DNA of 64,000 bases from Bythopirellula sp. Its GTDB lineage: Bacteria > Planctomycetota > Planctomycetia > Pirellulales > Lacipirellulaceae. The notes below the pieces were generated by a model. The model was not told where the DNA came from. It saw only the letters and a program-made list of their open reading frames with translations, and searched no databases. This document shows, piece after piece, positions 2 through 6,295 of the stretch (the first letter of the stretch is position 1; each line of letters opens with the position of its first letter). The translations under genes were made by a program, and so were the position numbers. The stretch is from the NCBI GenBank assembly GCA_965216565.1, contig OZ244170.1:2176001-2240000 (forward strand), given 5' to 3'.

Positions 2-3000
2 CTCGATGAGTTGCACAAAGACTTGCTGATAGGTGTAACCAGCATGTTCCGCGACCCAGAGGCTTTCGACAGCTTAAAAAACACGCTACTGAACTATCTT
101 GATGAGTCTCACGGTACTCGCAATGAATTCCGTGCCTGGGTTTCTGCCGCCGGCACGGGCGAGGAAGCCTATTCAATCGCTATCATTTTGGACGAATGCC
201 TGCGAGAGCTCGGCTTGAGACTCCCTGTGAAAATTTTCGCAACCGATGTCAATCAAGCATCGCTCGATACAGCTCAGGCCGGAGTCTATAGCAAAGATGA
301 GCTGGAAGAGATTAGTCCCGAGCGATTGGAGCGATACTTCAGCGAAGTCGAGGGGGGATACCAGATAGAGCAAGACATCCGCCAGATGATAGTCTTTGCG
401 CCCCACAATTTGGTGAAAGATACCCCCTTCACTAGGCTTGATCTGATCTCATGCCGGAACTTTTTGATTTACTTGCGGCCCTTGGCCCAGAAAAAAATCA
501 TTTCGCTTTTTCATTTCGGGCTGAAGACGGGCGGATTGCTCTTCCTAGGTGCCAGCGAGACGACGGGCGATCTGGCGGACGAATTTGAGCCTTTGATCGA
601 CCGGTGGAATATCTACCGCAAGCGGAGAGACGTTCACATCTCACAGGTGATTGATGGCGTGCTGAATGCCGACATCAATAAACCGAAAGCCTCCGGCCAA
701 GACACTATAGTACCGCGAATTCCCAGGGAACCCGATCTGCAGTCAACGTACGACGAGTTACTCGGCGAGTACATGCCTGCAGCCATTCTTGTAGATCACA
801 ACTGCGAGATGCTCCACATGTTTGGAGGAGCAGGGGAGTTTCTCACAATTCGTGACGGACGTCCTAGCAACAGATTGCTCGACATGGTGGACGGCAATCT
901 AAAACTGGCCATCACTGGGGGAATTCAATCGGCTGAAAAGAAATCGAAACGGGTGCGTTATCACTCTGTGATGGCAAATACTGCCAGCGGAACTCGGCCG
1001 CTTGAAATAGAGATAATTCCAGTCGGACAGAAAGAGCATTTTGCAAAATATCTTATCACGTTTAACGATGTAGAAGAATCGAAACTGCCTGCAGCTGGCC
1101 CGAGCGAAAATCTGGATGTCTCTGAGGTTACTCGCGACCAAATCGAAGGGCTCGAACAAGATCTTCGTCGAGCCAAACAAAGTTTGCGATCCACCGTCGA
1201 GGAACTAGAGACCAGCAACGAAGAACTTCAGGCGACTAATGAAGAACTGACCGCATCGAACGAAGAATTACAAAGCACGAACGAAGAACTTCATTCTGTT
1301 AACGAAGAACTTTACACAGTCAACGCCGAGTTCCAGAAAAAGATTCTTGATCTGACCGAGATGACGCATGACATGGAGAATTTGCTGGAAAGCACTGAAG
1401 TGCATACGCTTTTTCTCGATGAGAACCTATGCGTTCGGAAGTTCACCCCCATGATGGCGGAAGTTTTCAATCTGGTAACTCGCGATATAGGGCGGAGGAT
1501 TTCATCCTTCTCCTATAATCTCGACTGCGAAGACCTCACCGGTCGAGCTTCTGAAGTACTCGAAACCGGAGAGCTATTCGAACAACGGGTCAATGAAAAT
1601 GAGGACCAACAGTTTTTGTTGAGGATGCTGCCTTATCGAGCTGAGAATCGCATCAGCGGTGTCGTCCTGACACTGGTAGATATCACCACGCTAGCCGAAG
1701 CAGAAGAAGATGCTCTTCACGAACGCGAACGCTTCCAGCGCGCCATCCTGGCCAATCGCGATGGCACCTGGGACTGGCCCGATGTCGCCAACGAAAATAT
1801 GTGGTGGTCCGACACGTGCTACCAATTACTCGGTTACGAACCTGGAGAATTTCCTGCGACCTATTCTCAGTGGCTGAAGAATGTACATCCGGAAGATCGA
1901 GCCCTCATTGAGCAGACGAGCGTTCCTTCCCAAGAAAAATGCTTTGTCGAGTTGCATCGCCAGTTTGAATACCGAATGCAACACAAATCGGGCGAGTACC
2001 GTTGGTATGAGCATCGAGCCATCATTGACTTTGGCGATGACGGCTCGCCCCTGCGAATGACGGGCACTGTTGGTGACATTCACGATCGCAAAATATCAGA
2101 ATTCCACAGCGTGGAAGAAATTCATCGCCGGGACAATTTCCTAGCAATGCTTTCTCATGAGCTCCGCAATCCCATGGGGGCTGTCCTGAGCGCGATCAAC
2201 TCAGCCAAATCCCCTAACGAGAGTCCTGCGGATGGCCAGGCTGAACTTCATTCCCTTGAAACAGCAAAAGACGCCATGCAAATCATTGGACGTCAAACGA
2301 AATATATGGCAAGGCTGTTGGACGATTTGCTCGATGTTGCCCGATTCGGCCAAAATCGAATTGAATTCCGCCAAGAGGTTGTCGATCTCAAGCTATTAGC
2401 GGAAGAAGTCATGGAGGCTTTTTCACACGAGCTTCGAGATAAAGACATGGAACTGCACATAGATTTTGGCAGCGAACCTATCTTTGTGGTTGCAGACCCA
2501 GCTCGGATGAAGCAGGCCCAAATCAATCTCCTCAGCAACGCTGCGAAGTACACGCCCGAGGGAGGCGACATCTGGTACGAAATCTCGCAGCAAGCTAACG
2601 AAGCCATCATTTCGATCCGTGACAATGGCGATGGCATTCCTCCGAAAATGCTGGATTCGATCTTTGAGCTATTTGTTCAATCGGAATCTAATCTTGCCCA
2701 TGCGTCAGGCGGAATCGGCGTAGGGCTTTCCCTGGCACGAAGCATTGTGGAGGCGCATTACGGAACGCTCACTGCCGAAAGTGAAGGGGAGGGACAGGGA
2801 AGTACGTTCACAATTCGTCTGCCGGTAACCGTGAATACCAAAAAGGCGGTCGTACCTGTCCCGCACATCTCTTTCGACGATCGCAGCTTATTACTGGTAG
2901 AAGACAATGACGATGCACGCATGATGCTCGCGAAAACGCTACGCATGCAAGGGTTCGTCGTTCACGAGGCTAGCGATGGCTTTTCGGCACTCGAAAAATT

Positions 3001-3259
3001 TAAGAATGTCAGCCCGGAAGTTGCCATCGTCGATATTGGACTGCCCGTGATGGATGGCTACCAATTTGCCAGAGCTGTACGTCAGCTTGAATTGGACTGG
3101 GATTTTGTTCTCATTGCATTGACCGGGTACGGTCAAGATTCCGACCGGGAACAAGCCCTCAAGTCTGGCTTCGATGCCCATCTGGTCAAACCGCTCGACC
3201 CTGTCGAACTCTATCGAACCCTGGCCCAAAATCTCTCACCTGCACACATCCAGCAGTAA
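2..3259 (+). CDS. CheR-methyltransferase/PAS/histidine kinase/receiver hybrid (CheB-CheR-type fusion kinase), 5'-partial
   Basis: Frame is open from the window edge. CheR motifs ([25 protein letters not shown]), EEL/NEEL coiled-coil heptads, PAS-like segments, H-box SHELRNPM, N-box [9 protein letters not shown], G-boxes DNGDGI and GIGVGL, C-terminal REC (VEDN, VDIGLP, KP). Confidence 0.92.
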   Translation, partial: [1085 protein letters not shown]

Positions 3260-3409
3260 TTCGCCATCCCTAGACCACTCCGGTCTGTTAACTTTTGCAC
3301 CTACTTGACGTGCAATTTGCATTCAGTAAGTTTTTCCAGACGAGGATGGAAAAACATCTCCAGATGATCTCTAAATGACAGCATTCTTGATTAGCAACAG
3401 GGAAGTTAG

Positions 3410-3652
3410 ATGGCTGGTTCTCACACCAACTCCGGAAACGAAGAGGAATCGAACTCTACCGAGGCTCAAATTCGCATCCGCGAACAGCTTCATTCGGTGC
3501 AAATAGGGCTCGATCTACTAAGAAGAGAGATGTTAGCAGGCAAGTTTCGTAGTGCCGAAGACACCTATTCCACGATTGTTCAGTGCCTAGGAAAGATCTC
3601 GAATGATGATTTGCTAGCAGGCAGCAATTCTGACGACTCAAACGACTCCTAA
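3410..3652 (+). CDS. 80-aa protein homologous to the middle (DHp-like) helix of the downstream CsrA-REC protein
   Basis: ATG with upstream AGGGA; 13/33 identities by eye to the central segment of 3922..4686. Confidence 0.7.
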   Translation: MAGSHTNSGNEEESNSTEAQIRIREQLHSVQIGLDLLRREMLAGKFRSAEDTYSTIVQCLGKISNDDLLAGSNSDDSNDS

Positions 3653-5457: not shown

Positions 5458-5814
5458 CCCCCCACACTCCTATCGCTTGCCCCTGAACGTAATAGAAATA
5501 CCCTGCACACCTTTGTAATGTGAAGGACGGTTTCTCTCCCTCCGCAATCGCATGAATTATCGTCACAATTCGCAAGCCTTCATCAGCATACCCAGCCGGA
5601 AGAGTCGAAAAACTTTACCAAGCGGCTATTGTTTGTCGCAATTGTGCGAAGGGAGCAGGTCTTCGCGCTCGAATTCTGCCTTCCGCTGCTAGCGGAAAAT
5701 TTACAATCTTCTGGCAAATGTACACCATTCACTGAACACGCCGCCAACGCTGGCAACTCCCTAAGATGTTAGCCAGCCGGTAAATACGCCGCACCACACT
5801 TTTCTGCCGCACCC

Positions 5815-5831
5815 TTGGCACGCCGTATGCG
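5815..5831 (+). promoter_or_regulatory. Putative sigma54 (-24/-12) promoter of csrA
   Basis: TTGGCACGCCGTATGCG against consensus YTGGCACG-N4-TTGC, with correct GG-N10-GC spacing, about 75 bp upstream of the ATG. Confidence 0.6.
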
Positions 5832-5905
5832 TATCACAAGGCAGGTGTCAATCGGCACTGTCTTTTCTAAACCGGAACTTGTCTCACCAACAAAGGGAGT
5901 GTGTC

Positions 5906-6295
5906 ATGTTGGTTCTTACCAGGAAGCAGAACGAAAAAATTCGCATTGGCGATTCTATCACCATCACGGTATTGCGAATGAAAGGCAAAGCGGTTCGACT
6001 GGGCATCGAAGCGCCACACGACATTAATGTGATTCGCGGAGAACTCTGCTTCGATCTTGGCGAGGAATCGACCGATTCCCTACCAGATGTTGCAGACCAA
6101 ACTGATGAAAGGCTCGTCCCGCCAAAGAGCAAGCCACTCATTAGCAGCAACTCGAACACCACCAGTGCGGTAGCAAAAGAAGAAACCTCACATTGGCCCG
6201 TCGAGTCGAGCCAAGCAAGCCACCCGCCGACGGCTAACTGCACGGTACCCTTGGGAGTCTCGCCACTCCGCGCGATGCTCGAAGCTCGCACTTAG
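5906..6295 (+). CDS. csrA: Carbon storage regulator CsrA with long disordered C-terminal tail
   Basis: MLVLTRKQNEKIRIGDSITITVL...VRLGIEAP...VIRGEL; SD AGGGAG; start reassigned to ATG 5906. Confidence 0.9.
   Translation: MLVLTRKQNEKIRIGDSITITVLRMKGKAVRLGIEAPHDINVIRGELCFDLGEESTDSLPDVADQTDERLVPPKSKPLISSNSNTTSAVAKEETSHWPVESSQASHPPTANCTVPLGVSPLRAMLEART

Follow-up and report, generated by a model that had tools for sequence, protein, structure and literature searches.

A CsrA protein with an embedded kinase-like hairpin is a candidate phosphorelay output in Planctomycetota

A hybrid kinase gene precedes a CsrA-receiver gene

Here, we describe two linked genes from Bythopirellula sp., a member of the Planctomycetota. 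The DNA analysed, hereafter the window, is a stretch of 64,000 nucleotides (assembly GCA_965216565.1, contig OZ244170.1, positions 2,176,001 to 2,240,000 of the forward strand) and coordinates refer to this stretch unless stated otherwise. The upstream gene encodes a hybrid histidine kinase. The downstream gene, which we call the fusion gene, encodes a protein of 254 amino acids (aa) that combines an RNA-binding CsrA domain, a helical hairpin and a response regulator receiver (REC) domain. Together, they would form a two-gene signalling module, with the kinase as input and the 254-aa protein as output. The original prediction, made from the DNA letters, was that the pair constitutes a phosphorelay wired directly to CsrA.

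The window opens inside the kinase gene (1..3259, plus strand). Its open reading frame (ORF; 2..3259) is open at the 5' end and supplies the last 1085 codons of a 1355-aa protein; in the extended genome sequence, the ATG is 809 nucleotides (nt) 5' of the window start. Over the full length, Pfam domains occur in the order CheB_methylest, CheR_N, CheR, PAS_10, PAS_3, HisKA, HATPase_c and Response_reg, with a coiled coil between CheR and PAS_10. Judging by this domain order, the protein is a soluble, cytoplasmic hybrid histidine kinase with both chemotaxis-type adaptation enzymes. The CheB domain had escaped the first reading and is revealed by the full-length gene, which starts outside the window. 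The remaining parts claimed for the kinase (an HELRNPM H-box, a receiver and a CheR domain) were found as described. The CheR domain, an S-adenosylmethionine-dependent methyltransferase, spans 35..592 (PF01739, E 2.3e-49, residues 12-197 of the window ORF). The dimerisation and histidine phosphotransfer (DHp) domain lies at 2129..2350 (HisKA, PF00512; E 1.5e-10, or 2e-10 with the full kinase). Its H-box reads SHELRNPM and the codon of the phospho-histidine, H1, is 2156-2158. Next are the HATPase_c domain (2495..2830; PF02518, E 1.7e-25) and a C-terminal receiver (2891..3220; PF00072, E 8.1e-21) with its aspartate, D1, encoded at 3032-3034. The kinase core scored best with models for TorS, LuxQ, ArcB and BarA, in every case below the cut-off of that model.

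The fusion gene (3922..4686, plus strand) was defined from its ORF, Pfam matches, relatives and an AlphaFold2 model. The order of its parts is as first proposed: a CsrA domain, then a helix bearing the motif HEVRNKL, then an intact receiver. To judge by its relatives, this is a real gene rather than a chance ORF, since database searches returned 1084 related proteins at E<=1e-3 (both Pfam domains were present in 118 of the 120 listed) and 208 genome loci were confirmed for the family. Conservation was measured in 81 proteins, 40-63% identical, that comprise the window protein and those of the best 80 of the 208 loci. Of the 121 genomes sampled from the class, 27 have the family, as do 16 of the 75 genera, which makes it common enough for study; Gimesia and Blastopirellula are among the named genera. 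As far as seen, the family appears confined to Planctomycetota, save for one contig labelled Alcaligenaceae. The protein from that bin (L068) nests among Gemmataceae/Isosphaeraceae in a tree, and the contig is probably mis-binned rather than a case of gene transfer.

Residues 1-50 of the fusion protein (3922..4071, plus strand) form the CsrA domain, which scored 54.6 bits with Pfam PF02599 (E 1e-14, cut-off 27, profile positions 1-49 of 53). The NCBIfam csrA models gave 51.4 and 48.1 bits, which is less than the 70.1 and 73 demanded for equivalogs. Alignment with solved CsrA/RsmE chains extends over the full length of the domain (E 6e-8 to 2e-4). Note that CsrA is an obligate dimer and binds GGA motifs in RNA as a homodimer. 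The RNA is contacted by the N-terminal strand, MLxLxR, and by an arginine and a glutamate that open the C-terminal helix. In the family, M1, L2, R6 and R45 are kept in 81 of 81 proteins and E47 in 80. R45 corresponds to what we take to be the key RNA-binding arginine of E. coli CsrA.

The receiver (4321..4656, plus strand; residues 134-245) scored 73.6 bits with PF00072, against a cut-off of 30.2 (E 1.8e-20). Its phospho-acceptor, D182, has codon 4465-4467 and is referred to as D2. All 81 proteins have the catalytic set of E/D137, D138, D182, S/T at 212 and K234, with D138, D182 and K234 invariant. In the AlphaFold2 model, the domain has the (beta/alpha)5 fold and a predicted local distance difference test (pLDDT) score of 85-92. 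The receiver also dominates structure matches: Foldseek with the full model returned RR468, CheY (top) and PhoB, at a template modelling score of about 0.9 on target. Similarly, a full-length profile search of PDB sequences found receivers only. Since receiver and CsrA residues are both intact, the protein could plausibly be phosphorylated at one end and bind RNA at the other. Pfam detected no HATPase_c domain in the 254-aa protein, which hence does not classify as a sensor kinase.

The middle segment is related to kinase DHp domains

Pfam, at default thresholds, assigns nothing to the ~80 residues between CsrA and REC. AlphaFold2, run with a 26-sequence alignment, predicts two helices here (residues 66-91 and 95-114). 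Together with hhalign, this defines a HisKA-like hairpin of residues 66-114 (4117..4263, plus strand), followed after about 19 residues by REC. The motif HEVRNKL occupies residues 70-76, and the codons for H70 and for N74, at position His+4, are 4129-4131 and 4141-4143. Modelled alone, with an 81-sequence alignment, the segment had a mean pLDDT of 89.1.

The relationship to DHp domains emerged from profile comparisons. We built a profile from the DHp domains of 45 partner kinases, being the window's own and 44 encoded beside fusion genes. When the profile of the 81 hairpins was compared with it, hhalign returned a match of 95.7% probability (E 9.7e-9, 45 columns). H70 fell on the kinase phospho-histidine and N74 on the kinase asparagine; the core HELRN is common to both. 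An earlier run, in which an alignment of whole proteins was set against the single window kinase segment, had given a weak match of 13.7% probability, with H-box on H-box, and is superseded.

Pfam HisKA matched 33 of the 81 isolated hairpins at E<=1 (best 2.6e-5), while the next family had 7 matches. The window hairpin scored 17.1 bits (E 0.0059, profile positions 10-51 of 66), and one database relative, P0068, has a precomputed PF00512 match. A search of 301 phylum-wide genomes with the hairpin profile also retrieved, beyond the family, frames of 233-677 aa with E values from 1e-9 to 1e-5. Three were inspected and all are ordinary PAS/HisKA/HATPase kinases, with the match falling on the Pfam HisKA stretch. 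In the ESM Atlas, 20 of the 30 named hits were to HisKA-annotated clusters; shuffled sequences also reach scores in the range of the one obtained (0.91), and this is a lead only.

Matches to other phosphotransfer modules were also sought. Neither the fusion protein nor the hairpins matched Hpt (PF01627) and, in the profile search of PDB sequences, the histidine phosphotransfer (HPt) chain of BarA reached only E 4.3. SPOB_a matched just 3 of 81 hairpins at E<=1, and the fusion protein has no pseudo-ATPase domain. Foldseek with the 57-residue hairpin alone returned nothing at E<=0.001; designed helical hairpins, CsoR and TPR ranked highest, and the search is uninformative because the query is a lone helix pair. 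A predicted complex of two copies of residues 62-254 scored 0.09, compared with a mark of 0.42 and without controls, and is informative neither way.

We conclude, from these comparisons, that the segment is a divergent HisKA-type DHp minus the ATPase domain, albeit not a member at the Pfam threshold. The HisKA matches, the 95.7% alignment and the AlphaFold2 hairpin bear out what had been proposed for the segment. Likeness to Spo0B and ChpT, which had also been suggested, survives in part: there is a DHp-like hairpin with a candidate transfer histidine, but no pseudo-ATPase domain, and the analogy is functional only.

The hairpin histidine and asparagine are invariant

H70 and N74 are present in 81 of 81 proteins, so that the histidine proves as conserved among orthologues as the original prediction needed. 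They are the only invariant columns of the hairpin, for which mean column identity is 37%. R73 is kept in 71 proteins, and the residue at His+1 is acidic in only 48. Among full-length database hits to the window protein, H-x-x-x-N is kept in 116 of 118. The proline that follows the asparagine, invariant in partner kinases, is absent from hairpins. According to the available text of Willett and Kirby (PMC3510030), an acid beside the histidine is needed for kinase, not phosphatase, activity; conversely, threonine or asparagine at His+4 is needed for phosphatase, not kinase, activity. The pattern in the hairpins fits a DHp that would have lost autophosphorylation yet would still meet a phospho-receiver.

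The hairpin occurs in other settings. Short sequences of 68-100 aa have R/x-H-x-x-R-N in 10 of the 10 retrieved. Some of these entries may be gene fragments, and P0143 and P0238 are clearly truncated fusions. There are also proteins of about 200 aa that consist of hairpin and REC without CsrA (for example P0163, P0191, P0208 and P0232). In the window, the 662-nt spacer between the kinase and fusion genes contains an 80-codon ORF (3410..3652, plus strand) that encodes a degenerate, stand-alone copy of the hairpin. The product matches fusion-protein residues 72-116 by BLASTP (E 6e-8) and nothing in Pfam. It has isoleucine at the histidine position and glutamate at the asparagine position (Ile/Leu and Glu/Asp when relatives are included). 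Only the two closest loci, L001 and L002, have the ORF in this position, with 58-60% identity over 55 aa. Its product might act as a decoy by forming heterodimers with the hairpin.

CheB-CheR kinases and their receivers accompany the fusion gene

We clustered every ORF of 90 aa or more in the 81 loci by all-against-all comparison. The CheB-CheR kinase family, with 73 members in 49 loci, was the only neighbour common to more than nine loci. In the fetched flanks, a CheR-domain kinase is near the fusion gene in 50 of 80 loci; where at least 7 kb is available on both sides, 27 of 37 loci have a CheB-CheR kinase. Of the nearest kinases, 34 lie upstream and are read from the strand of the fusion gene, whereas 7 are upstream but divergent. 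Downstream copies are convergent in 8 loci and share the strand in 1. In a quick IQ-TREE tree, the linkage is spread over all main clades. Kinase synteny across Planctomycetota, which had been named as a check on the prediction, is therefore seen in four arrangements. This genome has exactly three CheR-type kinases and three CsrA-linker-REC genes.

The 73 kinase-family members include 44 full hybrids and 9 kinase cores with no detected receiver, several of which are cut by the locus end. The other 20 are CheB-CheR-PAS proteins of about 850-970 aa that lack a kinase core and are usually encoded by an extra gene upstream. At loci whose nearest kinase lacks a receiver (L021, L023, L024, L039 and L061), the kinase and fusion genes have a gene for a one-domain receiver of ~146 aa between or beside them. 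The same small gene is found in L073 and L079, which have short flanks, and in this genome's second island. Because of these split-receiver loci, we consider that the first receiver accompanies the kinase, either fused to it or as a separate gene. Such retention of D1 would be what a Spo0F-like step predicts.

The second island (L086; G000:C1:3352001-3369500) contains two CheB-CheR kinases, two one-domain receivers and two CsrA-linker-REC genes. In order, it has a PAS kinase, a His-bearing fusion gene, a small receiver, a CheB-CheR kinase without REC, a CheB-CheR hybrid kinase, a solute-binding protein, a HAMP kinase, a small receiver and a His-less fusion gene. Elsewhere in the genome, the sole Pfam Hpt match (G000:C1:1488611-1489759, plus strand) is at the end of an 827-aa frame with HATPase_c and REC, apparently an unorthodox ArcB/BarA-like kinase. 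Hence, by Pfam Hpt, this genome has no free-standing HPt. For the REC domain of the fusion protein, the best non-paralogue tblastn matches in the genome are the RECs of CheB-CheR kinases (2178855-2179244 and 3363708-3364046). In summary, the linked genes of the window contain four phospho-sites: H1 (2156-2158), D1 (3032-3034), a candidate H2 (4129-4131) and D2 (4465-4467).

The kinases contain an array of Glu-Glu heptads

In the window kinase, the coiled coil between CheR and PAS_10 includes an array of NEEL repeats (1199..1333, plus strand). The pattern EExx[AST][AST], at 7-residue spacing and at least three in a row, is found in 58 of the 73 neighbouring CheB-CheR proteins. Proteins that share 45-60% identity elsewhere have almost the same array, and it is almost invariant in the coiled coil of all 73. 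It resembles the chemoreceptor methylation consensus, Glu-Glu-x-x-Ala-Ser/Thr. By analogy, this suggests that the array is a candidate internal substrate of the fused CheR and CheB, with self-methylation as an adaptation device.

GGA motifs in the fusion gene leader

The leader of the fusion gene (3653..3921, plus strand) has AAGGA at 3870 and at 3904. The latter is inside AAGGAGGA, the strong ribosome-binding site that precedes the ORF. Both are possible autoregulatory CsrA sites. Across the window AAGGA is depleted (72 matches vs 121 expected), yet six are on the plus strand between 3651 and 4753. We compared positions -150 to -16 of 79 family genes with sequences upstream of 421 other ORFs from the same loci, so excluding the ribosome-binding site. 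Per 134 nt, family leaders have 3.28 GGA, 0.81 AGGA and 0.32 AAGGA, compared with 1.94, 0.34 and 0.08 in the controls; the intergenic background is 2.05, 0.45 and 0.14. This enrichment, an indirect sign that RNA binding may be retained, is a lead only, because related loci do not yield independent counts and the start codons of the controls are approximate. Rfam, searched with window positions 1-12000 at E<=0.1, gave no match to small RNAs (sRNAs) or anything else. RNA folding of the leader (3850-3950) was no better than for shuffled sequences (z -0.19).

Downstream, two copies of AAGGATTG, 36 nt apart (4713-4753, plus strand), lie beyond the stop codon, in the stretch of 3' untranslated region that leads up to the terminator. 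Their spacing suits a CsrA dimer, to judge from the sequence. The transcription unit ends at a terminator-like hairpin (4788..4822, plus strand), which has a 16-bp stem and then a T run.

A sister subfamily lacks the histidine

The third paralogue in this genome (L086:15867-16667, minus strand; relatives P0270-P0316) is 40% identical to the window protein and has aspartate at the H70 column. N74 is retained, as are the residues of the receiver and of CsrA. An alignment of 33 His-less proteins has no invariant histidine in the linker. This linker is helical by composition, and F-H-H-L-K is often conserved in its second half. In three other genomes (G301, G302 and G303) the His-bearing gene is 8-9 kb from the His-less gene; the distance is about 13 kb in this genome. 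Seven genomes were common to two samples, and each of their eight family genes is His-bearing. Hence, the His-bearing form is the common one.

A proposed relay and its alternatives

We propose the following scheme as the most likely. The output protein would be dimeric via CsrA, and its hairpin would be derived from a kinase that lost the ATPase domain and retained H70 and N74. H1 would autophosphorylate and pass the phosphoryl group to D1. Next, D1 would dock on the hairpin and transfer the group to H70, acting as H2, from where it would move to D182 of the same protein. In the reverse direction, the same hairpin surface would drain D2. Phosphorylation of D182 may shift the receiver and hairpin against the CsrA dimer, so deciding whether GGA sites of mRNA are clamped. 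This might involve occlusion or release of the RNA-binding faces of the CsrA dimer by the receiver or hairpin. Alternatively, receiver dimerisation may alter avidity for paired GGA sites. A candidate target is the fusion gene's own GGA-rich leader. On the input side, the CheR and CheB domains of the kinase would methylate and demethylate the Glu-Glu heptads, providing sensory adaptation.

We assign a probability of roughly 0.45 to this His-Asp-His-Asp relay, with H70 as H2 and D182 as the terminal site that controls CsrA output. The relay was the core of the original prediction; all four relay residues are indeed present and linked, but a His-less sister subfamily exists beside hybrid kinases. 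More broadly, and by whatever route, the protein is probably a CsrA-type regulator that is controlled by phosphorylation and has the CheB-CheR kinase as its cognate partner.

Several observations weigh against the relay. The window hairpin, at 17.1 bits, is below the Pfam HisKA gathering cut-off of 26.9. A search of PDB sequences with the hairpin profile found no significant kinase (the best TPR-like match had E 0.005 and a bacteriophytochrome H-box E 0.8), and the top 150 hits among 1.84 billion representatives were nearly all family members, not kinases. Invariance of N74, with a relaxed His+1 position, fits a surface for phosphatase activity or reverse transfer equally well. Among the 37 loci with long flanks, 10 have no CheB-CheR kinase nearby. 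Shared ancestry of the loci and approximate start codons of the controls confound the GGA enrichment. No experiment or structure was found for any family member. Finally, H-x-x-x-N is missing from 61 of 116 full-length hits to the third paralogue, compared with 2 of 118 for the window protein. In three of three other genomes (those listed above), the His-less gene adjoins the C-terminal end of a hybrid HisKA-HATPase-REC kinase, with the genes co-directional in one genome and convergent in two. Hence, a hybrid CheB-CheR kinase can pair with a His-less output. The receivers of such outputs would either be charged directly or use the His-bearing protein as H2 in trans.

Direct charging might apply to the His-bearing protein too. 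In this main alternative, which we consider somewhat unlikely, H1 would phosphorylate D182 directly. D1 or the small receiver would be a competing sink or an internal regulator, and the hairpin would serve as a dimeriser and cis phosphatase that sets the lifetime of phosphorylated D182. The closeness of the fusion REC to the RECs of CheB-CheR kinases means that the kinase DHp could recognise it, and the His-less outputs beside hybrid kinases show that an internal H2 is dispensable for outputs of this kind. Asparagine at His+4 in 81 of 81 proteins, and an acid at His+1 in 48 of 81, also match the phosphatase-type roles of these residues in the available text of PMC3510030. Conversely, D1 persists, whether fused or as a separate gene, and the genome has no free HPt. 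The histidine is also absolute in 10 of 10 short hairpins and in the hairpin-REC proteins. This would be unexpected of a phosphatase accessory, since some HisKA kinases reportedly retain phosphatase activity without the histidine. A different route to H70 would be phosphorylation in trans by the partner's ATPase domain, as for a split kinase, with H70 then charging D182 and D1 uninvolved. While the hairpin is closest to the DHp of partner kinases, shares the HELRN core with them and has a conserved gene pairing, the acid at His+1, reported in the same paper's available text to be needed for autophosphorylation, is present in 48 of 81 only. Moreover, the proline after the asparagine is absent from hairpins, and the conserved D1 would be left unexplained. 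We regard this route as improbable.

Perhaps the hairpin has no part in phosphoryl chemistry, and is a structural dimerisation spacer in which the histidine and asparagine serve packing or partner contacts. Its second half does resemble TPR-like helix pairs in profile searches, with three multi-repeat TPR proteins among the hits. In addition, the sister subfamily has a helical linker without the motif, and the 80-aa paralogue (3410-3652) lost both residues yet is conserved in two relatives. Nonetheless, just H and N are invariant, at 37% mean column identity, and they align exactly to the phospho-histidine and His+4 asparagine of real kinases. A packing role would not predict keeping the HELRN core of the partner kinase's H-box, and this makes the spacer a poor explanation. 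Least credible of all is a CsrA domain that no longer binds RNA, and is instead a dimeric scaffold or protein-binding module in a relay intermediate or sink. Hairpin-REC proteins without CsrA (P0163, P0191, P0208 and P0232) indicate that the phospho-module can stand alone. However, the CsrA domain scores twice the Pfam cut-off, aligns end to end with solved CsrA/RsmE chains, keeps R6, R45 and E47 in 80-81 of 81 proteins, and is encoded behind GGA-enriched leaders.

Taken furthest, the relay would be part of a planctomycete post-transcriptional two-component system. A self-methylating PAS kinase would supply the input. As a hub, the embedded histidine would charge the receiver of its own protein in cis and those of His-less CsrA-REC paralogues in trans, with CsrA repression set by phosphorylation rather than by sRNA sponges or FliW. 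In this full form, we think the scheme unlikely.

Comparison with known systems

The proposed relay shares its His-Asp-His-Asp logic with KinA-Spo0F-Spo0B-Spo0A of Bacillus and CckA-ChpT-CtrA/CpdR of Caulobacter, in which the second histidine is on a DHp-like hairpin, not an HPt. D1 is a separate one-domain receiver, like Spo0F, at some loci and is fused to the kinase, as in CckA, at others. ChpT serves two receivers, and an H2 doing likewise could explain His-less sister outputs in the same islands. Unlike Spo0B and ChpT, the H2 hairpin here is fused inside the terminal response regulator, with REC directly after it. The predicted output is also RNA binding rather than the DNA binding of Spo0A and CtrA. 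ArcB, BarA and TorS similarly need a second histidine site after D1. In contrast to those kinases, neither the kinase nor the output protein described here has an HPt, and the candidate H2 is a DHp-type hairpin.

To our knowledge, CsrA has been found to be controlled only by sequestration, whether by sponge sRNAs (CsrB/RsmZ type), FliW or CesT. The N-terminal 50 residues of the fusion protein are a bona fide CsrA domain of the CsrA/RsmA-RsmE kind, and the genome also has a classical FliW-CsrA pair (302768-303384). Control of the fusion protein would instead be by covalent phosphorylation of the fused receiver. ANTAR regulators (AmiR, EutV and PdtaR) likewise couple a receiver to an RNA-binding output. 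They differ in that the output here is N-terminal, has another fold, and would act at GGA sites on translation rather than at antitermination hairpins; an extra His-bearing DHp is also inserted between output and receiver. With regard to CheR/CheB chemoreceptor adaptation, the partner kinase has complete CheB and CheR catalytic domains and Glu-Glu heptads followed by small residues. Unlike in chemotaxis, the module has no chemoreceptor, CheA or CheW, the CheB domain is without its usual receiver, and both enzymes are joined to a PAS histidine kinase.

The pairing of REC with CsrA was itself suspected to be catalogued, and so it is: the available text of PMC2222644 gives REC-CsrA and ANTAR as the two RNA-binding classes of response regulators. 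E. coli CsrA is listed as an 'orphan RR' (response regulator) in PMC12471899, and no fusion is described in the available part of that paper. Full-text literature, mostly outside subscription journals, held nothing on a CsrA-receiver mechanism, the histidine hairpin, pairing with CheB-CheR kinases or CheB-CheR-PAS kinases, which is not proof of absence. What is new here is thus the candidate H2 embedded in a response regulator with CsrA output. If the relay operates as proposed, it would add covalent, kinase-driven control to CsrA, among the most widespread translational regulators in bacteria, and link two-component signalling straight to mRNA translation with no transcription step. The module would also be a natural case of a DHp minus its ATPase domain built into a response regulator, useful for understanding phosphorelay evolution, with fused or split D1, and His-bearing or His-less outputs, side by side in the same genomes. 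Likewise, it offers a testable function for uncharacterised CheB-CheR-PAS kinases and their Glu-Glu heptads.

Other genes nearby

Beyond the terminator, the minus strand encodes a secreted-looking protein with a CarboxypepD_reg domain (4864-5457), and a trypsin-like protease with a dockerin-type repeat and a PEP-CTERM-like tail (6330-7646). Between them is a plain CsrA gene (5879-6295, plus strand). Its product has 138 aa, or probably 129 aa from the ATG at 5906, and a long tail rich in Ser/Thr/Pro. These three genes were considered as parts of the system and rejected, since none is a conserved neighbour. Another plain CsrA gene, encoding 98 aa (L081:3969-4265, plus strand), precedes the kinase start by ~5 kb. 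In all, 12 CsrA-domain matches occur in the genome, and FliW adjoins one of them only (302768-303384).

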